64,000 nt of DNA from Oscillospiraceae bacterium. GTDB lineage: Bacteria; Bacteroidota; Bacteroidia; Bacteroidales; Bacteroidaceae. A model generated the notes under the pieces. It ran no database searches. It had not been told where the DNA came from and saw only the letters and a list, made by a program, of their open reading frames with translations. Position numbers and translations under genes: made by a program. The stretch's first letter is position 1; each line of letters begins with the position of its first letter. The stretch covers positions 66,704 to 130,703 of the forward strand of contig CAVAHD010000003.1 in assembly GCA_963588475.1 (NCBI GenBank), read 5' to 3'. Of the stretch, positions 8,052 through 21,259 are shown piece after piece.

Positions 8052-8639
8052 TTATTTTTCGTCAATTGGTTTATAACTCCATTTATACCCGTAAGCAGTA
8101 TGTCTATACTTCCCGCCTCGGCAACATTTTGATATGTTTGCATACGAAACGTGTTGTTTTCTCGTTACGCTCATTAGTGAAGGCCATACCTTTATCAAAT
8201 TGCCTTCCAAATCATATTGATATACTTCCTTTTCACAACCATGAGAATTATTTTTATTTCGAGTATCTATTTTTGTTCTCATTGAATTGTTATAGGTTGT
8301 ATTATATGAATAAGTACACCACTCCAAATTGCCAACGTTGTTGTTCAATTTGTTTTCATCCTTGTGATTAACAACTGGATATTCATGAGGATTTGCAATA
8401 AATGTTTCAGCCACTAGTCTATGAATCCTTACCAATTTGATAAGTTCCCTGTTGCGCAGACAAACGAAAGCATATCCGTTAGGGTTCACACCTGCCTTTA
8501 ATGTCCTGCCTTTCAAGAAATAGGGGGCACTATTGCATCTCGGAATCATTCTATCAAGCGAGCGAACTTTTCCAAAATTACTTACTTGGTAAACCCCTTC
8601 AAATCCAGTAATATCTTGCCAGATTTCTTCTCTTGTCAT
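8052..8639 (-). CDS. HNH homing endonuclease (NUMOD4 + HNH_3 type)
   Basis: EIWQDITGFEGVYQVSNFGKVRSL (NUMOD4-like) followed by HRLVAETFIANP...VNHKDENKLNNNVGNLEW (HNH). The gene is visibly AT-rich relative to its neighbours. Confidence 0.85.
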   Translation of the reverse strand: MTREEIWQDITGFEGVYQVSNFGKVRSLDRMIPRCNSAPYFLKGRTLKAGVNPNGYAFVCLRNRELIKLVRIHRLVAETFIANPHEYPVVNHKDENKLNNNVGNLEWCTYSYNTTYNNSMRTKIDTRNKNNSHGCEKEVYQYDLEGNLIKVWPSLMSVTRKQHVSYANISKCCRGGKYRHTAYGYKWSYKPIDEK

Positions 8640-9667: not shown

Positions 9668-9785
9668 TGGGAATGCCGGGAGTCGAACCCACAGCGAAAT
9701 AGCGATTCACTGTATCATTTCACAATTTGAACTATTATTGCCGCACTTTGTATCCGGGCGTGCAGCGATTAAGCCTCGCATTCCC
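9668..9785 (-). ncRNA. tRNA-like element E2 (acceptor and T arm present, long non-canonical interior)
   Basis: 7-8 bp acceptor helix GGGAATG(C)/(G)CATTCCC. T loop GGGTTCGACTCCC with an imperfect stem. It is 118 nt long and contains an internal hairpin ATCGCTGCAC/GTGCGGCAAT. Confidence 0.3.
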
Positions 9786-9863
9786 AATTGTAAAACCCCA
9801 CTATACTCGCGTACCATGAGGTGCTTACTTTGTCTATGTAACTAAAACAACATTAGTATCTTC

Positions 9864-10151
9864 TTAGTAGCAAGCAGCCCTCGGCCGCCCTGTGTCGTTG
9901 CAGTGCTCGTCTACGTACTTCTTGCGCATCCGCGCCACGAAGTCCTTGGCTTGTTGCAGCGTCAGAACGTCGTTGCTCTGGTCTGCCTTATCCTCGACCG
10001 CGAAGGCTGGAATGCCGTGCAGCCAAACGTAGAGCTTGCCATCTTTGTCGTCTTGAATGTAGCAGAACTGGCGGCTCATCCACTCCGCTTCCTTGATGCG
10101 CTTAGTGCGGTTGTTCTCACTGATGCGCTTGATTATTCTCTTTATTCCCAT
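9864..10151 (-). CDS. hypothetical phage protein
   Basis: ORF 9864..10193 trimmed to MGIKRIIKR.... This start lies just downstream of the upstream stop at 10157. Confidence 0.55.
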   Translation of the reverse strand: MGIKRIIKRISENNRTKRIKEAEWMSRQFCYIQDDKDGKLYVWLHGIPAFAVEDKADQSNDVLTLQQAKDFVARMRKKYVDEHCNDTGRPRAACY

Positions 10152-10156
10152 AGTCG

Positions 10157-10399
10157 TTATGATTTTGCTTTGATTTCTTTGTTGATGTACCATACGGCCT
10201 TGTTGAGGTCTTGTATCTCCTTCTCCTTTGCCGTCAATCCCTCTTCGGTCTTGTGCCCGGCACGGAACAGGTATTTGAGTGCATTGCCGATATTGAAATT
10301 GAAGTGCTCGCAGATGTCGATGGCTTCAATGCCGCACTTCTCCTTTAGCCAAGTATAATGGCTCGGGTGGTTTACTGCATCGCTCTTTGTTTCGTTCAT
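10157..10399 (-). CDS. DUF3310-like phage protein
   Basis: HPSHYTW...IEAIDICEHFNFNIGNALKYLFRAGHK...DLNKAVWYI matches the DUF3310 pattern as I recall it. Trimmed to MNETKSD, next to the dUTPase stop. Confidence 0.65.
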   Translation of the reverse strand: MNETKSDAVNHPSHYTWLKEKCGIEAIDICEHFNFNIGNALKYLFRAGHKTEEGLTAKEKEIQDLNKAVWYINKEIKAKS

Positions 10400-10400
10400 G

Positions 10401-10862
10401 TCACTTGCCGCTTGAACCATAACCGTTGTTTGCCCTCTCGGTTGCCTCGAACTCTTCTGCCTCTTCGAAGTCTATCTCGTAGGTGTGTCCGATGCAGAGT
10501 TGGAATATCCTGTCGCCGACCTCGTATTTCGGCATGTTGGGAAGAACGTGGTAGAAAATGGCGGAAAGCTCGCCAGTGTAGCCTGCGTCTATGGTGCCGA
10601 TGCAGTTGCTCAGAACCATGCCTGTCTTCCATACAGAGGAACGTGGGCGTGCATCGATGCCTAATGTGGCGTTTCGTCTCTTGCTCATATTGCGGTTAAC
10701 GCTCGCAATCTGTAAAGCGATGCCTGTGCCGTATCGGTACACGTTTGGAGCTATCTCTTCGCATGATGTAGCCACTACGTCGTAGCAGAAATCATCGTCG
10801 TGTGCTCTGGTCGGAATTACTGCGTCTTTGCTTAGTAGTTTAATTTTTACCTTCATTGTCAT
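10401..10862 (-). CDS. dut: dUTP diphosphatase
   Basis: Trimeric dUTPase motifs are present: ARPRSS, GTIDAGYTGE and C-terminal GYGSSG. Confidence 0.85.
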   Translation of the reverse strand: MTMKVKIKLLSKDAVIPTRAHDDDFCYDVVATSCEEIAPNVYRYGTGIALQIASVNRNMSKRRNATLGIDARPRSSVWKTGMVLSNCIGTIDAGYTGELSAIFYHVLPNMPKYEVGDRIFQLCIGHTYEIDFEEAEEFEATERANNGYGSSGK

Positions 10863-11151
10863 TGTTTTTTTTGAATCGTCGTTGTTTTAATTCGTTTTCT
10901 ATTTCTGCCTGCGTTTTGCAAATCTCATCGGACTGCACCTTGTCGGACTTCGTGAGTAAGGCTATCTCTATCTTTTCCTTCAATTCGTCGAAGGGAACGC
11001 TGGTGCGGTACTTTCTGCCGTTGTAGAGCTTTATCCAAGTGTGATGGCCGCTCTCTTCTGCGTAATACTCTTTGATGTCCTCGGGACTAATCGCCACAGT
11101 TGCCTTAATCGGGAACTCGGCAAGGTCTGTTTTTACTTTTATCTTTATCAT
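10840..11151 (-). CDS. hypothetical phage protein
   Basis: 103-aa ORF that overlaps the genes on both sides. Confidence 0.5.
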   Translation of the reverse strand: MIKIKVKTDLAEFPIKATVAISPEDIKEYYAEESGHHTWIKLYNGRKYRTSVPFDELKEKIEIALLTKSDKVQSDEICKTQAEIENELKQRRFKKNNDNEGKN

Positions 11152-11467
11152 GCTTTGTAGATTTGGTTTCTTCCTTCTTCGCTTGGCGCATCAATACTGA
11201 CTGTCGCCGTGTCATGGACTTTATAATCGTTGATTGTACCTTCTCCAGTACAAATTCGGCGGTCTCCTCGTCACGGACAAACACCGGGAACGTCCTGTGT
11301 TTCCTGAAGAACTCCACGTCGTCCTCTCCAGCTATCTTGATGTAAACGTTGTACCTTGGAAGGAACACGTCGCTCTTGCCTGGCTGGTGCTTCTTTCGGT
11401 ACACGTAGCCAATGTGCTGCGAACCGAGCCACTTTGCGATATAGTTTAGCTTTTCTCTATTTGTCAT
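11105..11467 (-). CDS. hypothetical phage protein
   Basis: ORF 11105..11491 begins with GTG, so it is trimmed to the first ATG (MTNREKLNY...). It is the first gene downstream of the structured noncoding region. Confidence 0.55.
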   Translation of the reverse strand: MTNREKLNYIAKWLGSQHIGYVYRKKHQPGKSDVFLPRYNVYIKIAGEDDVEFFRKHRTFPVFVRDEETAEFVLEKVQSTIIKSMTRRQSVLMRQAKKEETKSTKHDKDKSKNRPCRVPD

Positions 11468-11499
11468 TTCGTTTAACTTTTGTATGGGCACTTCCCGCC

Positions 11500-11925
11500 C
11501 CTTTGCCGCATATAGAGAGTTTAAGAAATCTCACCTATAAGAGACATGGGTTAGAAGAAAAGAGAGTCTTTATGATACCTACTGGAGAACCAGTCCTTTC
11601 TTTGTCTTCAAGAGCACTAATCATGGAGGTTGCCAACCTTTCTGTGTTCCTTCCTTTTCTCTTACCTTTCGGTATGCTGGCGCCTGTTGACGGGCGGTGG
11701 GTCAGAGCAGGACTTGGGGAAGTACCATTTTCGTACTGGAGCAGTTTTATATATCGGCAGGTAAACCGAAGAGGACTGCACGGATTTAACCTCTATGAGA
11801 AGCCCCCACCTCTGTGTGGTTTCTTTTAGGAACGAGAAATCTACAGGCACAGGTGGGGGCTTAGATATATATTATCATGTCTCTTATACTGCTCTCGATG
11901 TACCTCTAGAATCCTCGTTCCTTTG
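11500..11925 (-). ncRNA. candidate structured RNA or long structured leader (about 400 nt)
   Basis: No credible ORF. A 13-bp long-range pairing joins 11536-11548 to 11876-11888. A 10+3 bp hairpin joins 11802-11816 to 11848-11860. A 9-bp crossing helix joins 11828-11836 to 11914-11922, and several local hairpins are present. A TACCTTTG box lies just upstream on the minus strand. Confidence 0.35.
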
Positions 11926-11931
11926 TGGTTG

Positions 11932-11939
11932 CAAAGGTA
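11932..11939 (-). promoter_or_regulatory. Bacteroidetes -7 promoter box (TACCTTTG)
   Basis: Matches TAnnTTTG on the minus strand. It sits between a terminator at 12101-12133 and the structured region. Confidence 0.45.
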
Positions 11940-12100
11940 GTAAGAAAAACTTACCAAACAAATAAAAAGTTGCCTTTTCTTGCCATTATACTTGTAAATA
12001 CCGTAAAAGGGAACAAAAAAGCGAAATAAAGAACACTAAACAAAGTAATAAAAACTTACTTTAAACTTAACTTTGCGTATCTTGATGGAATCCCAGATAC

Positions 12101-12133
12101 AAAAAAAGGACACGCCATGTTGTCTGCGTGTCC
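12101..12133 (-). terminator. rho-independent terminator
   Basis: On the minus strand, GGACACGC-N10-GCGTGTCC is followed by T7. It lies 40 nt after the stop of 12175..12519. Confidence 0.65.
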
Positions 12134-12174: not shown

Positions 12175-12519
12175 CTATTCTTTGCTAAGTGCCTCGAGAA
12201 CGCCGCCTATGACGTTTATCTCGTGGTGTGAGGCCTCGATGTGGTCAAGGAGGGAGAATATGCCATTGTTGCCTATTAGCGTGCGTACAACATCTCTTTT
12301 GTCCTTATCTTGGGAATCCATAGCATAGAAGGTCAGAACGCGCCTCAGTGCCGCCTGTGAGGCGTTGAGGCTGACAAGTCGGTTCAGTATGTCGGCGGTG
12401 CTTTGCAGGTGGCTCTCCATCCGGGCGATGTCGCTCATGTTACCCTTGGTGCTCTCGGTTTCAGACTCGGTGAATAATGCTGCCATCTCGGCGATTGTTG
12501 TTGATGATATTTCTTTCAT
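12175..12519 (-). CDS. hypothetical phage protein
   Basis: 114-aa helical ORF lying 1 nt after the Bro-N gene stop. Confidence 0.55.
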   Translation of the reverse strand: MKEISSTTIAEMAALFTESETESTKGNMSDIARMESHLQSTADILNRLVSLNASQAALRRVLTFYAMDSQDKDKRDVVRTLIGNNGIFSLLDHIEASHHEINVIGGVLEALSKE

Positions 12520-13501: not shown

Positions 13502-13509
13502 CAAAGTTA
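13502..13509 (-). promoter_or_regulatory. Bacteroidetes -7 promoter box (TAACTTTG)
   Basis: TAnnTTTG on the minus strand, about 220 nt upstream of the Bro-N start codon. Confidence 0.4.
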
Positions 13510-13624
13510 GGAAGAATCCATCAAAAACACCGAATATCGAAGGTAGAAAAATTAAGAAATAAGAAAGATGTACCACTTTTGTGGAAAGATATACCCGTAT
13601 GTCCAGGGGCACACGGGTATATTT

Positions 13625-13774
13625 TTAGTCTGCTTGCGCCATATACCGGATGGTCGCCCGAACGTCCACAAAGCTCGTCCATCCCAGTCGGCAGAACTCT
13701 CTTGCCGCTTCTTCGAGGGTTATCTTGCCAGCCTCGAAGTCCCGGCGGATAGTGTAATTTGCGGTTCTTCTCAT
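13625..13774 (-). CDS. possible 49-aa ORF
   Basis: Hand translation gives MRRTANYTIRRDFEAGKITLEEAAREFCRLGWTSFVDVRATIRYMAQAD. It is followed by a 10-bp hairpin at 13589-13622. Confidence 0.35.
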   Translation of the reverse strand: MRRTANYTIRRDFEAGKITLEEAAREFCRLGWTSFVDVRATIRYMAQAD

Positions 13775-15785: not shown

Positions 15786-16475
15786 TCAAATTGTAAGTTT
15801 TCGAAATTGTGGTTGGGAGTTCTCGGACAGCCTCCCCCAGTTCTGAAGGTTGGTGTTGAGTCGCTCCATGGCTTCGGCTGACTGCATTCGCATGGTCTGC
15901 CCCCCCCGTAGGTGGCTGAGCCGTTCCGTCCGAGCAAAGTGCTCGACTTGCATCTGCCCCCCCTCGAACGATTGTTGCTGGAAGTGGCCGTACTGCGAGA
16001 AGTATCGCTTCACGGCGAGGTAACGCTGCTGAATGTCCTTGATGGGGTCGATGAATGAGAGGTCGTGGCCCAGTTCGCGGCCCAGCGAATAGTCGGAGAA
16101 GAACATGGCATAGTGTATCGCCTTCTTCAGCGGCTCTATCTCCTGCGAATAGAGATAGTCGCGCAAGTTATTGCCGAACGACCACACTACGACCACGTAG
16201 GGGTCGGTGTCGCGCAGACGGAAAAAGTCCTCACGGCTAATCCATCTGGTCTCGTTGTTGTACTTACCGCTCAGCGCGTCGATGAAGAGGGTAGGGCACA
16301 TCCAGTTGAGGTCGTTGATGTGAATGTGATCATACTTCTTCATCACCATAGCGGCATGGCTCACTGCACACCCGCCGCAGAAAAGGTCTACGAGGTGTGT
16401 GCGCTTGGGCAGAAGGCGCACGATGCGCTCCGCCAGTTTGTTCTTGCTTCCCTTATAGGGTAGTCCGTATTTCAT
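15786..16475 (-). CDS. T4 Dam-like (D12 class) DNA adenine methyltransferase, apparently truncated
   Basis: The N-terminus YKGSKNKLA...LVDLFCGGCAV (motif I) and FRLRDTDPYVVVVWSFGNNLR resemble T4 Dam. No DPPY motif occurs before the stop. The 3' part contains G7 and G8 tracts. Confidence 0.65.
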   Translation of the reverse strand: MKYGLPYKGSKNKLAERIVRLLPKRTHLVDLFCGGCAVSHAAMVMKKYDHIHINDLNWMCPTLFIDALSGKYNNETRWISREDFFRLRDTDPYVVVVWSFGNNLRDYLYSQEIEPLKKAIHYAMFFSDYSLGRELGHDLSFIDPIKDIQQRYLAVKRYFSQYGHFQQQSFEGGQMQVEHFARTERLSHLRGGQTMRMQSAEAMERLNTNLQNWGRLSENSQPQFRKLTI

Positions 16476-21148: not shown

Positions 21149-21208
21149 GCGCCTGGAAAGCGTGTATACGTCAAAAGCGTATCGGGGGTTCGAATCCCCC
21201 TCTCTCCG
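21149..21208 (+). tRNA. 3' fragment of tRNA-Ser(GGA) (anticodon arm to 3' end), attR copy
   Basis: Present are the anticodon loop CTGGAAA, a long variable arm TATACG-TCAAAA-GCGTAT, the T arm GGGGG-TTCGAAT-CCCCC and the acceptor 3' strand TCTCTCC. No GGAGAGA 5' strand or D arm occurs upstream. Confidence 0.75.
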
Positions 21209-21220
21209 CTTTACTAGCAA

Positions 21221-21259
21221 GGATTTGGAAGATGTACACACGCTTCCAAATCCTTTTTT
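21221..21259 (+). terminator. rho-independent terminator of the tRNA gene
   Basis: GGATTTGGAAG-N11-CTTCCAAATCC followed by T6. Confidence 0.75.

Follow-up and report, generated by a model that had tools for sequence, protein, structure and literature searches.

A multiply pseudoknotted phage RNA opens an early operon in a Bacteroidota prophage and belongs to a widespread family without a match in Rfam

In the window analysed here, a stretch of 64,000 nucleotides, the feature of interest lies on the minus strand of a Bacteroidota prophage, between a gene for a 114-aa protein (ORF 12175-12519) and a five-gene operon that includes a dUTPase (Table 1). The upstream gene ends at an intrinsic terminator (12133 to 12101 in the direction of transcription, folding energy -18.9 kcal/mol, adjoining a T run) which is identical in the related loci L001-L005 and marks the upstream limit of the RNA unit. 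This terminator is followed by an AT-rich flank and by a promoter whose -7 box corresponds to TAnnTTTG, the Bacteroidota promoter consensus; the box is invariant in L001, L006, L008 and L009, is also found upstream of other relatives with Bacteroidota-type promoters, and would place the transcription start near 11926-11922. At the other end, the first ORF of the operon begins 26 nt past the conserved RNA core described below, and no convincing internal terminator was found in the operon before the one at 9796-9821.

A preliminary description of this region had proposed a promoter-proximal structured RNA with crossing helices, read from the minus strand in a phage context, and our analysis supports this proposal: each feature it had named, from the helices to the TACCTTTG box and the upstream terminator, lies where it had placed it, and "large phage ncRNA or regulatory leader" was the correct general category. 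The same description called the region ORF-free, which holds only in that no ORF is conserved, as mechanical ORFs of up to 157 aa do exist on the plus strand. Overall, sequence comparison indicates that this stretch is a real, strand-specific and heavily knotted RNA of ~430 nt that opens an early operon of the prophage, and that it is a member of a widespread phage RNA family without a match in Rfam 15. The RNA is organised as two parts, a 5' module (11926 to 11798) and a core of ~305 nt (11797 to 11493); this core with its own pseudoknots, and the family behind it, are the two items that the preliminary description did not contain.

Table 1. Features of the RNA and of its surroundings, in the order of minus-strand transcription (positions are those of the window).
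Feature	Position	Strand	Remarks
Intrinsic terminator of upstream gene	12101-12133	minus	hairpin GGGACACGC..GCGTGTCC, then T7
Predicted Bacteroidota-type promoter	11932-11962	minus	TTTG (-33-like) 11959-11962, 19-nt spacer, -7 box TACCTTTG 11932-11939
PK0 5' arm (extreme 5' leader)	11899-11922	minus	pairs with loop of attenuator hairpin
13-nt perfect inverted repeat, 5' arm	11876-11888	minus	partner 11536-11548
Putative attenuator, GC-rich hairpin	11800-11862	minus	arms 11848-11862 and 11800-11814, 33-nt loop
Core 5' end	11741-11797	minus	CAUAG, then H-type pseudoknot PK1
P3	11790-11794 with 11770-11774	minus	PK1; PK1 loop UUAAAUCCGU
P7	11776-11779 with 11741-11744	minus	PK1
P8 hairpin	11765-11769 with 11754-11758	minus	inside PK1
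A-rich strand	11745-11753	minus	PK1
Central domain	11613-11737	minus	Ha, Hb, Hg, Hd, Hc, GAAA hairpin
Ha closing helix	11733-11737 with 11613-11617	minus	
Hb closing helix	11725-11728 with 11623-11626	minus	
PK3 (Hg crossing Hd)	Hg 11718-11722 with 11650-11654; Hd 11676-11681 with 11632-11637	minus	
Signature hairpin Hc	11683-11711	minus	UCCUGCUCUGACCC..GUCAACAGG
GAAA hairpin	11663-11674	minus	
3' domain	11493-11609	minus	He, He2, Hf, AAAG, PK2 3' strand
He long helix	11595-11609 with 11554-11566	minus	bears hairpin He2
He2 hairpin (UUCU)	11581-11594	minus	
Hf hairpin	11535-11548 with 11504-11515	minus	followed by AAAG and PK2 3' strand
PK2 (loop to tail)	11495-11500 with 11692-11697	minus	GGGCGG with Hc loop CCGCCC
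Operon headed by the RNA	9796-11467	minus	five ORFs, ending at hairpin and U run 9796-9821
Operon ORF 1, 120 aa	11105-11467	minus	
Operon ORF 2, 103 aa		minus	
dUTPase	10401-10862	minus	Pfam and PHROGs
ORF of ~80 aa		minus	counterpart in L001/L003 carries Pfam DUF3310
ORF of 109 aa		minus	last operon gene

The comparison with Rfam that the preliminary description had called for yielded no family match in the window or its relatives. None of the 4227 models of Rfam 15 matched the window at gathering level, a permissive scan (E up to 10) returned only chance microRNA and lncRNA matches on the GC hairpin, and in the 19 relatives scanned (18 homologous loci and L078) no model hit the motif. BLAST searches of the GenBank phage collection with the region and with a consensus of the 5' core gave no true match, ARAGORN detected no tRNA or tmRNA in the window, and no description of the RNA was found in the literature. 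Protein homology with contig look-up, and motif scans, gave over 60 distinct relatives, which lie in viral contigs, metagenomes and Bacteroides genome bins; the phage sequences that carry the RNA stem from gut, rumen, soil, freshwater and marine environments. The family appears to be a previously undescribed class of large structured RNAs. Searches of the viral contigs for close relatives with both flanking proteins found no match, and neither did a first motif pattern, CAACAGGNNCCAGCATNCCGAAAGGT, so that the stretch it covers is lineage-specific.

All relatives share a hairpin of the form UCCUGCUCUG-N-CC..G-N'-CAACAGG (Hc), a conservation which is partly built in, as the family census was seeded on this motif. 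Within it, N and N' are complementary in 52 of 53 viral-contig matches, and the inner pair changes from U-A to A-U in 7 of 19 sequences. The Hc sequence is common to phages with Bacteroidota-type promoters and phages with sigma-70-type promoters, which suggests a conserved target.

The core begins at a sharp conservation boundary, (U)CAUAG, and contains an H-type pseudoknot (PK1), a second pair of crossing helices (PK3) and a long-range pairing of the Hc loop with the 3' tail (PK2), all with covariation behind them. Across alignment A7, 94% of the cells in helices are paired (none of 500 shuffles scored as high), and double changes affect 4 of the 5 pairs of P3, a helix left out of the model used for building this alignment, as well as all four pairs of P7 and all five of P8. 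Counted over the 22 pairs in the 5' half of the core, double changes occur in 14, a figure that none of 500 shuffles equalled, and controls with a shifted register collapse. P8 is dispensable in some lineages (L071, L089). The A, B and C lineages all have fully complementary helices Ha, Hb, Hg and Hd at corresponding positions despite differing sequences, and covariation of the central domain is also seen within the A lineage. PK2 complementarity recurs, without shifting position, in at least 10 lineages, as CCGCCC/GGGCGG, CCACCC/GGGUGG, AUCCAUU/AAUGGAU, AACCAC/GUGGUU, CCAGCC/GGCUGG, CAGGCC/GGCCUG, GCGAGC/GCUCGC and others. Among only five sequences, 21 of 78 predicted pairs have compensatory changes, and several U-G pairs are invariant. 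Compensatory substitutions in homologues, on which the preliminary description had staked its proposal, were thus looked for and found, and the tetraloop-type hairpins it mentioned are present as the GAAA and UUCU hairpins. One helix predicted by RNAalifold (CUGCUCC/GGGGCGG) was dropped: it is without support in the B and C lineages, and P7 together with the loop-tail pairing explains the same nucleotides better.

Strand is indicated by the pairs themselves. The change in He2 of L001 gives a G-U pair on the minus strand and would give A-C on the plus strand, and since such pairs are kept, the conserved entity appears to be an RNA of the minus strand rather than a DNA element. Folding-energy z-scores are misleading on this choice, the plus strand scoring better (-3.6, vs. 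-1.5 for the minus strand and +0.8 for the core alone); because the conserved fold is pseudoknotted and lies outside nested energy models, the folding energy of the whole region is uninformative.

These data also bear on a reading as a DNA-level element (a replication origin, or a site for packaging, attachment or inversion) or as a gene for a small conserved protein, which we consider very improbable. The AT-rich flank (11940-12100) does hold an imperfect direct repeat of 36 nt, the arms of a perfect inverted repeat of 13 nt lie 327 nt apart, and in the window an antisense frame is open over the whole core. Against this, G-U pairing preserves the helices on just one strand and the orientation to the promoter is fixed, which, together with the cassette-like occurrence at varying genome positions detailed below, leaves the replication-origin or packaging-site reading of the preliminary description without support. 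In relatives, the AT-rich flank, which that description had singled out, is the least conserved part. Between the window and L001 it shows 18 substitutions over 247 nt and an indel of 15 nt, vs. 4 substitutions across the 305 nt of the core; the corresponding flanks of L047 and L049 are unrelated, and the segment reads as promoter-upstream sequence. As for a conserved small ORF, the longest open frames vary in frame and length among relatives, at most 57 of 105 antisense codons are open in the B-type lineage, and indels between lineages are not multiples of three.

The 13-nt inverted repeat, which was matched in only one of 150 dinucleotide shuffles of 11468-11939, is likewise lineage-specific. 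It had been described as a 13-bp closing helix; the complementarity is there (13/13), and the closing role finds no support, the helix being confined to the lineage of the window and L001. The segment with its 5' arm is missing from L006, L008 and L009, and its 3' arm is the 5' strand of the conserved local hairpin Hf, so that the helix would compete with the family fold, outside of which the comparison places it.

Upstream of the core, the 5' module consists of a leader and a GC-rich hairpin whose 15-nt arms are 93% complementary. The 9-bp crossing helix noted previously (11828-11836 with 11914-11922) is the end of a longer 24-nt pair, 11828-11851 with 11899-11922 (PK0, 83% complementary), the 3' arm of which fills the hairpin loop and overlaps 4 nt of the stem. 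The module alone folds at -40.1 kcal/mol (z = -3.8), and in its minimum-energy fold in the window the leader-loop helix is formed in place of the hairpin. The hairpin was found in ~16 lineages, with loop-leader complementarity of 6-13 nt and a different sequence each time; both the hairpin and the helix crossing it, as previously proposed, are kept by covariation in many lineages. It looks terminator-like: the equivalent hairpins in relatives have other stem sequences and, in most lineages, a strong U run behind them, with the pattern of an intrinsic terminator in L008/L009 (CCCCGUCC..GGACGGGG, then U6). The U tract 3' of the window hairpin is weak (CUUCUC).

The leader/loop pair is, by these comparisons, hypervariable and co-varying between near-identical relatives. 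Of the 12 substitutions that separate the window from L001 between start site and ATG, the two 24-nt arms hold 6 (p = 7e-4) and the core only 4, and the changes in PK0 include a swap of U-A to A-U, a replacement of U-G by C-G and of U-U by G-U, and the loss of one pair. L047 and L049 have nearly identical cores, and their leader/loop pairs are GGGAGA/UCUCCC in one and GGUCGAG/CUCGACC in the other. No second copy of the leader or loop arm was found elsewhere in the window, and both the leader-loop and the loop-tail complementarity fit pairing within one molecule or between molecules alike.

In its genomic contexts the core behaves as a cassette, placed before unrelated early or accessory genes or convergent into a repressor or integrase gene. 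Out of 64 variants, 41 have a co-directional downstream ORF and 11 are convergent, the latter including cases with an S24 repressor and an integrase; the varied downstream genes encode an antirepressor, a DNA methyltransferase, a RecE-like exonuclease, an O-like replication initiator, an HNH-like protein and unknowns. Homology between L047 and L049 runs from the -7 box to ~15 nt past PK2, with unrelated flanks on either side. The promoter of L070 directly adjoins the core, with no attenuator between them, and in L092 the same core comes with one; both loci have a terminator ~35 nt past the core and no co-directional gene. All-against-all comparison of the neighbouring ORFs, in which we looked for a co-occurring protein partner, found only the S24 repressor family common to several lineages, varying in position and orientation. 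Each locus has one copy of the RNA.

Some of these contexts would fit a stand-alone, trans-acting RNA of the "ornate" phage type. Such a core would work apart from the transcript that carries it, either by serving a host or phage protein as decoy or scaffold or by forming an RNA-only oligomer; the loop-tail and leader-loop complementarities would then be intermolecular contacts, and co-transcription with genes downstream would be incidental. We regard this as a rather unlikely alternative, with several points in its favour: L070/L092 amount to promoter, core, terminator and convergent integrase gene, F-type loci run into the 3' end of a repressor gene, the core of L021 is followed by another promoter, and the module is a cassette with unrelated flanks. 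In addition, its complexity is on par with that of other large phage-associated RNAs of unknown function, and its covarying 6-7 nt complementary segments resemble intermolecular kissing contacts; ROOL, GOLLD and OLE are reported to form homo-oligomers (PMC12286853). However, about two thirds of the variants have a co-directional ORF 25-45 nt past the core with no terminator between, the window core is without a 3' terminator, and the RNA is single-copy at each locus.

The leader position, with an ORF 26 nt past PK2, also invites comparison with a large riboswitch-like sensor, in which the core would bind a small molecule or ion reporting the state of the host and tune expression via the loop-tail pseudoknot before the first ORF. 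Conserved unpaired nucleotides around the pseudoknots and varied downstream genes, as for sensing of a global signal, are consistent with such a role, which we nevertheless judge improbable: past the window core there is no recognisable expression platform (in the A lineage, the interval from PK2 to the ATG holds neither a terminator nor a sequestering helix that is conserved), the sole terminator-like element lies upstream of the conserved domain, convergent and terminator-followed contexts occur, and ~305 nt exceeds the single aptamers known to us.

A self-processing ribozyme, cleaving at or near the 5' boundary of the core so as to free a leader-hairpin RNA and stabilise the operon mRNA by the structured 5' end left behind, seems similarly improbable. 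Multi-pseudoknot architectures are typical of ribozymes, conservation stops sharply at (U)CAUAG, two independent assemblies begin exactly at CATAG, and the order of P3, P7 and P8 with an A-rich joining strand recalls the core of group I introns. Then again, the boundary nucleotides vary across lineages, a variable 5' module beside a conserved core would explain the contig breaks equally well, no Rfam ribozyme or intron model matched (E up to 10), and in place of flanking exons there are a terminator and a promoter upstream.

Taking the fold, strand, family, phage association and cassette-like distribution as established by these comparisons, we consider an attenuator-gated RNA effector to be the most likely function. 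The prophage would carry a module, transcribed on the minus strand upstream of a five-gene early or accessory operon, in which a host-type promoter is followed by a short 5' leader bearing an attenuator hairpin and then by a ~305-nt core stapled by three pseudoknots (probability roughly 0.4, for the explanation as a whole). RNA polymerase would start near 11924, and the extreme 5' leader would pair with the loop of the GC hairpin. A long leader-loop helix (24 nt here) would compete with the hairpin and favour read-through, while with a short loop-loop kiss of 6-7 nt helix and hairpin could coexist, and the lineage-specific leader/loop pair would set the share of transcripts passing the terminator-like hairpin. 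Because this pair is hypervariable and co-varying, it may also be a specificity determinant, as in antisense or immunity RNAs. Read-through transcripts would carry the folded core at their 5' end, and this core would be the functional product, a compact RNA binding a conserved component of the host expression machinery, the favoured target being the transcribing RNA polymerase or its elongation factors, as for the put RNAs of phage HK022. The core could then control whatever lies downstream, be it sense genes or, as antisense, a repressor or integrase gene.

Against the attenuator-gated effector, the window hairpin with its weak U tract may not terminate here, and processive antitermination would be unneeded at the window locus, as there is no internal terminator before 9796-9821. 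A processive antiterminator normally lies upstream of the terminators it overrides, and here the attenuator lies upstream of the core, which speaks against a put-like role; the terminator past the core of L070/L092 fits a stand-alone trans-acting RNA at least as well. Circumstantially in favour of a put-like role are the position after early promoters, the independence of gene identity and, in C and F types, what lies downstream: a terminator or a convergent gene.

Large bacterial RNAs knit by several covarying pseudoknots are rare, and those known so far serve as ribozymes, riboswitches or scaffolds of important machines. The RNA sits at control points of temperate phages, beside repressors, integrases and early or accessory genes, and in it a fast-evolving pairing "code" precedes a slowly evolving core. 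It is tempting to speculate that the core represents a new catalytic or polymerase-reprogramming class of RNA in temperate phages of several bacterial phyla, and that the leader/terminator-loop pair is an RNA-encoded specificity code (for immunity or incompatibility, within or between molecules) deciding which lineage switches core and operon on, a combination that we hold to be possible but rather doubtful. If the core were catalytic or acted on transcription, it would provide a new RNA-based mechanism of phage gene control and a tractable handle on the poorly understood regulation of Bacteroidota phages; even if the RNA were a passive leader, hundreds of intergenic regions that are now blank in viral genomes could be annotated with a curated model.

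Several known RNAs were compared with the family. UG27 arrays of Bacteroides prophages consist of repeated ncRNA units beside a reverse transcriptase of 380-450 aa and two accessory genes (bioRxiv 10.64898/2026.09.22.753630). The RNA described here is single-copy, with no tandem array, it neighbours genes for Bro-N and dUTPase and small unknown ORFs, and among the ORFs of the prophage part there is none of reverse-transcriptase size. With the group I core, it shares the strand order P3 5', P7 5', P3 3', P8, A-rich joiner and P7 3', and the sequence words GUUCA.. and ..GAUAUA.. resemble the R and S elements; the P3/P7 pseudoknot enclosing P8 with an A-rich J8/7 is present and covarying, which alone amounts to a generic H-type pseudoknot. 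A group I intron was rejected, with only 10 nt between P3 5' and P7 5', no P4-P6 domain, no exons (the upstream gene has its stop and terminator, then comes a promoter) and no Rfam group I match at E up to 10. An HDV-like ribozyme was rejected too, with only 1-2 nt at the place of P3/L3, a joining strand without the conserved C and no Rfam match, as were an RNase P-like RNA and T-loop or tRNA mimicry (no tRNA or tmRNA by ARAGORN). The PK1 loop, GGUUCAAUCC in most relatives, recalls a T-loop by eye only.

The pRNA of phi29 is also a phage RNA whose short complementary loops co-vary between relatives; it differs in size, fold and genome context, the phages here being temperate, with integrases and repressors, and the Rfam pRNA model gave no match. 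ROOL and GOLLD, whose Rfam models did not match either, are likewise large, covariation-supported, phage-associated RNAs of unknown function with candidate intermolecular kissing contacts, whereas the present RNA is smaller, stands behind its own promoter and attenuator, and is mostly the 5' leader of early genes.

For the 5' module, the nearest parallels are the CI RNA of P4 (seqA/seqB/seqC), the c4 RNA of P1/P7 and the attenuators of pT181 and pIP501, in which short leader complementarities decide premature termination or expression, and the complementary segments co-vary and differ between close relatives, giving specificity. Unlike in these systems, the partner here is the terminator-like hairpin's own loop in the same sense transcript, with no sign of the RNase P processing of P4 CI and P1 c4, no second target copy of the P4 CI/c4 type in the window and no match to the Rfam C4 model; the P4, P1 and plasmid systems lack the large conserved core that the present module has. 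For the core, the comparison that we favour is with the HK022 put RNAs, which act in cis to make RNA polymerase resistant to terminators and are ~70 nt long, with two stem-loops and no pseudoknot. The RNA described here differs from them in its 305-nt core with three pseudoknots and in having the terminator-like hairpin upstream of the core rather than downstream, and resembles them, by description, as a structured phage RNA just past an early promoter, indifferent to the identity of the downstream gene, with a conserved host machine as its expected contact.

The ~700 nt separating two minus-strand ORFs (114 and 120 aa) hold no conserved coding potential and lie among phage early genes, with a Sak-like annealing protein, RecE-like exonuclease, SSB, NinB, NinG, methyltransferases and a Bro-N antirepressor encoded upstream, and a dUTPase, an HNH/NUMOD endonuclease, an SSB and a replication initiator downstream; the host-chromosome part of the window encodes the type IX secretion protein PorE (1087 bits), which makes the host a member of Bacteroidota. 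Encoded in this gap is a member of a strand-specific, multi-pseudoknot RNA family of phages, in which a hypervariable, co-varying leader/loop pair stands ahead of a conserved core and whose distribution is cassette-like. In the window, the RNA heads a five-gene operon.

Features of the RNA locus and its surroundings in the window
Feature	Position	Strand	Remark
Upstream 114-aa ORF	12519->12175	minus	
Intrinsic terminator	12133->12101	minus	first element of the gap in minus-strand order
AT-rich stretch		minus-strand order	after terminator, before promoter
36-nt imperfect direct repeat	11941-11976 and 12027-12062		72% identity, spacing 86 nt, in AT-rich segment upstream of promoter
-33-like TTTG	11962->11959	minus	
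Box TACCTTTG	11939->11932	minus	precedes region flagged in the preliminary description
5' module	11926->11798	minus	putative attenuator and leader/loop pair
Leader/loop pair	11828-11851 with 11899-11922		24 nt, 83% complementary
GC-rich inverted repeat	11800-11814 with 11848-11862		15 nt, 93%
"Closing helix" inverted repeat	11536-11548 with 11876-11888		13/13 nt
Core	11797->11493	minus	
PK1 (core)			H-type pseudoknot; order P3 5', loop UU-N-N-AUC-M-GU, P7 5', P3 3', optional hairpin P8, A-rich strand (AGAUAAAA-like), P7 3'
Loop of PK1 (P3-P7)	11780-11789		
Central domain (core)			closed by Ha and Hb; Hg encloses Hc and crosses Hd (second pseudoknot); GAAA hairpin between
3' domain (core)			long helix He with inner hairpin He2, then hairpin Hf, AAAG, 3' tail pairing with Hc loop (PK2)
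120-aa ORF	11467->11105	minus	directly behind RNA
Operon-end hairpin and U run	9796-9821		
tRNA-like element	9669-9785	minus	~117 nt, just after operon-end terminator
HNH/NUMOD homing-type endonuclease	8052-8639		
Strong hairpin	13590-13625	minus	UAUACCCGUGUG..CAUACGGGUAUA, -18.9 kcal/mol, then UCUUUCC
Further box TAACTTTG	13502-13509	minus	~80 nt downstream of strong hairpin, ahead of Bro-N gene
229-aa ORF	15786-16475		
tRNA-gene-like fragment	~21178-21222	minus	GGGGGATTCGAACCCCC with flanks

Five near-identical loci (L001-L005) were retrieved by exact-protein look-up with the upstream ORF, and L006-L009, L040 and L041 were reached through homologues of the 120-aa protein (66-73% identity), every one of which is preceded by a noncoding gap of 550-670 nt. 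Aligned, these loci share a conserved -7 box, after which comes a leader of 100-130 nt that varies; across a sharp boundary there follows a core whose conservation extends from (U)CAUAGAGG (window 11797) almost up to the start codon. Two independent assemblies start exactly at CATAG, which the junction between variable and conserved sequence would explain. The most conserved element is the signature hairpin Hc, UCCUGCUCUG-N-CCC[loop]G-N'-CAACAGG, and scans for it turned up true relatives among viral contigs, two Bacteroides genome bins and ~30 metagenome contigs of gut, rumen, soil, freshwater and marine origin. A slightly relaxed pattern matched 53 viral contigs, with N and N' complementary in 52, a census that was seeded on Hc and is hence biased towards its conservation. 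Some members are preceded by TTGACA-type instead of Bacteroidota-type promoters, so that the family spans phyla. Each locus, the 64-kb window included, carries one copy only. In many IMG/VR contigs of the B-type locus class (47-100 kb), a mere 540-690 nt separate the RNA from one contig end, and it points inward (contigs with the RNA near one end: L101, L109, L112, L126, L127, L139, L140, L145), reflecting either a module at the provirus or genome edge or assemblies that tend to break just upstream of the RNA.

Within the core, the pseudoknot PK1 was evaluated with a covariance model (R1) comprising P7, P8 and Hc and leaving P3 out, with which 20 matches were aligned and their pairs counted. 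Overall, 94% of cells were paired and both sides had changed in 14 of 22 pairs, values reached in 0 of 500 shuffles, and pairing collapsed to 24-54% when partners were shifted by 1-3 columns. P3, absent from the model, showed double changes in 4 of its 5 pairs. The helices Ha, Hb, Hg and Hd each retain full complementarity, with differing sequences at corresponding sites, in three lineages (window and L006; L063; L070), and PK2 complementarity recurs at an equivalent position in at least 10 lineages, through a sequence particular to each. The core is also the most constrained part of the locus (4 substitutions over 305 nt between the window and L001, compared with 18 over the 247 nt that precede the promoter). 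The PK1 loop has the sequence GGUUAAAUCC in the window and GGUUCAAUCC in most relatives; judged by eye only, it fits the T-loop consensus (UUCRANNC with a closing G-C).

RNAalifold predicted 78 pairs from five sequences, 21 of them with compensatory changes, and several columns of that alignment are invariantly U-G, or alternate between U-G and C-G, where the other strand would give A-C; likewise, a change in He2 of L001 leaves a G-U pair when read on the minus strand and A-C when read on the plus. These one-strand pairs and the conserved promoter jointly assign the RNA to the minus strand. Folding-energy z-scores over 11468-11925 were -3.6 for the plus strand and -1.5 for the minus strand, with +0.8 for the core alone, the better plus-strand score being expected since nested energy models cannot represent a pseudoknotted fold. 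A stop-free plus-strand frame also crosses the whole core in the window, and both it and that score are traps for strand and coding calls. The preliminary description had named a conserved small ORF among the findings that would overturn its reading, and the alignments and open frames of relatives contain no conserved ORF accounting for the conservation; nothing supports its suggestion of an origin or packaging site either. We regard a DNA element or a coding explanation as very improbable.

Ahead of the core, a GC-rich, terminator-like hairpin (the putative attenuator) occurs in ~16 lineages, with a U run behind it in most, and in all of them its loop has a complementary segment further upstream in the leader. 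Some lineages form a 6-7 nt kiss between this loop and that of a small leader hairpin, and others pair 11-13 nt or more of single-stranded 5' leader with a large hairpin loop. The window pair extends over 4 nt of the hairpin stem, and the minimum-energy fold of the 5' module (-40.1 kcal/mol, z = -3.8) contains this pair rather than the hairpin; the U tract behind the window hairpin is weak. All three inverted repeats of the preliminary description are present, and its GC hairpin and 9-bp crossing helix, the latter being the end of the 24-nt pair, are real and conserved. Its 13-bp "closing helix" is statistically unusual (1 of 150 shuffles) but confined to the window/L001 lineage: the 5' arm lies within an insertion missing from L006, L008 and L009, the 3' arm is the 5' strand of the conserved hairpin Hf, and the pairing may be a lineage-specific alternative or a coincidence.

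Substitutions show rapid, coordinated evolution of the leader/loop pair. Of the 12 that separate the window from L001 between start site and ATG, 6 hit one or the other arm (binomial p = 7e-4), including an exchange of U-A for A-U, and L047 and L049 have almost identical cores but leader/loop pairs of GGGAGA/UCUCCC vs. GGUCGAG/CUCGACC. L070 is devoid of the whole 5' module, its promoter lying ~25 nt ahead of the core, whereas L092 has the same core with an attenuator, which argues for the attenuator as an optional regulatory front end and the core as the functional unit.

Homology between L047 and L049 extends from the -7 box to ~15 nt past PK2, limits that show the module to behave as a cassette. 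The first downstream gene varies among lineages, even between near-identical RNAs (Ant antirepressor, HNH/DUF559-like protein, DNA methyltransferase, O-like replication initiator, RecE-like exonuclease, unknowns), and a rough census of 64 variants gave a co-directional downstream ORF in 41, a convergent one in 11 and an unclear arrangement in 12. Relative to an S24 (LexA-like) repressor gene, the module is divergent in D-type loci and convergent into the 3' end in F-type loci; in C-type loci, a bidirectional terminator and a convergently oriented integrase gene lie behind it, and in L021 it and the gene for the large terminase subunit are transcribed divergently. The strongest rival, a stand-alone trans-acting RNA or oligomeric particle, draws support from the C-type, F-type and L021 contexts, and we consider it a serious if rather unlikely alternative. 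The RNA follows early promoters, is indifferent to which gene comes next and keeps Hc across phyla, three observations which suggest that its target belongs to the host's expression machinery and that it affects transcription downstream. It is thus tempting to favor a put-like action on the transcribing polymerase, with a probability of about 0.4 for the whole chain, in which leader/loop pairing would modulate termination at the hairpin and carry lineage specificity, and the core would be an RNA effector.

Several observations concern the neighboring genes. The 120-aa protein has a weak Vsr-like match (E = 0.009, residues 10-48) and the ORF at its position in L049 is a DUF559/HNH-like endonuclease-type protein (phrog_559), so that a small nuclease-fold protein may directly follow the RNA in these two lineages, other lineages being without one. 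The AT-rich segment is poorly conserved in relatives, and its 36-nt repeat may therefore be promoter-upstream or operator sequence, or chance. The strong hairpin and further box near the Bro-N gene form another terminator-then-promoter junction within the early region. In the 229-aa ORF, only the first 57 residues match a D12 adenine methyltransferase profile, and relatives encode at the matching place a 796-aa DNA methylase with Hint/intein and LAGLIDADG matches; with the homing-type endonuclease, selfish insertions seem common in the early region of this prophage. ARAGORN called no tRNA or tmRNA in the window. The tRNA-like element, which has an 8-bp acceptor-like stem (GGGAAUGC/GCAUUCCC, then ACC) and a T-arm-like GGGUUCGACUCCC, scored only 18.4 bits with the tRNA-Sec model (E = 0.43), and may represent a degenerate phage tRNA, one that bears an insert, or a tRNA mimic. 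The fragment at ~21 kb, where no full tRNA was called, resembles the T-arm-bearing 3' portion of a tRNA gene and may be a duplicated tRNA fragment of the prophage attachment site, which would place the prophage boundary near 21.2 kb.

Rfam, proposed as a check in the preliminary description, gave (release 15) no match to the whole window at gathering thresholds and nothing relevant at E up to 10 for the region alone or 19 homologous loci, and BLAST of the RNA region against GenBank phages returned no match. No description was found in the literature searched, whose coverage is incomplete, so that an earlier one may exist elsewhere. Membership tests set the RNA apart from ROOL and GOLLD, from group I introns and HDV-like ribozymes, and from riboswitches and UG27 ncRNA arrays. 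With respect to the P4/P1 immunity RNAs, they gave lineage-specific leader/loop covariation, no second target copy within the window and no match to the Rfam C4 model, and with respect to HK022 put, circumstantial signs such as the position behind early promoters; a ribozyme function appears improbable to us, and a riboswitch equally so. On the evidence available, this is a new RNA class. In its presumed working, the 5' module bears some likeness to the P4 and P1 leader/immunity RNAs and to plasmid antisense attenuators, and the core possibly acts like HK022 put; the RNA as a whole is comparable to ROOL and GOLLD, likewise large phage-associated RNAs with no assigned role.
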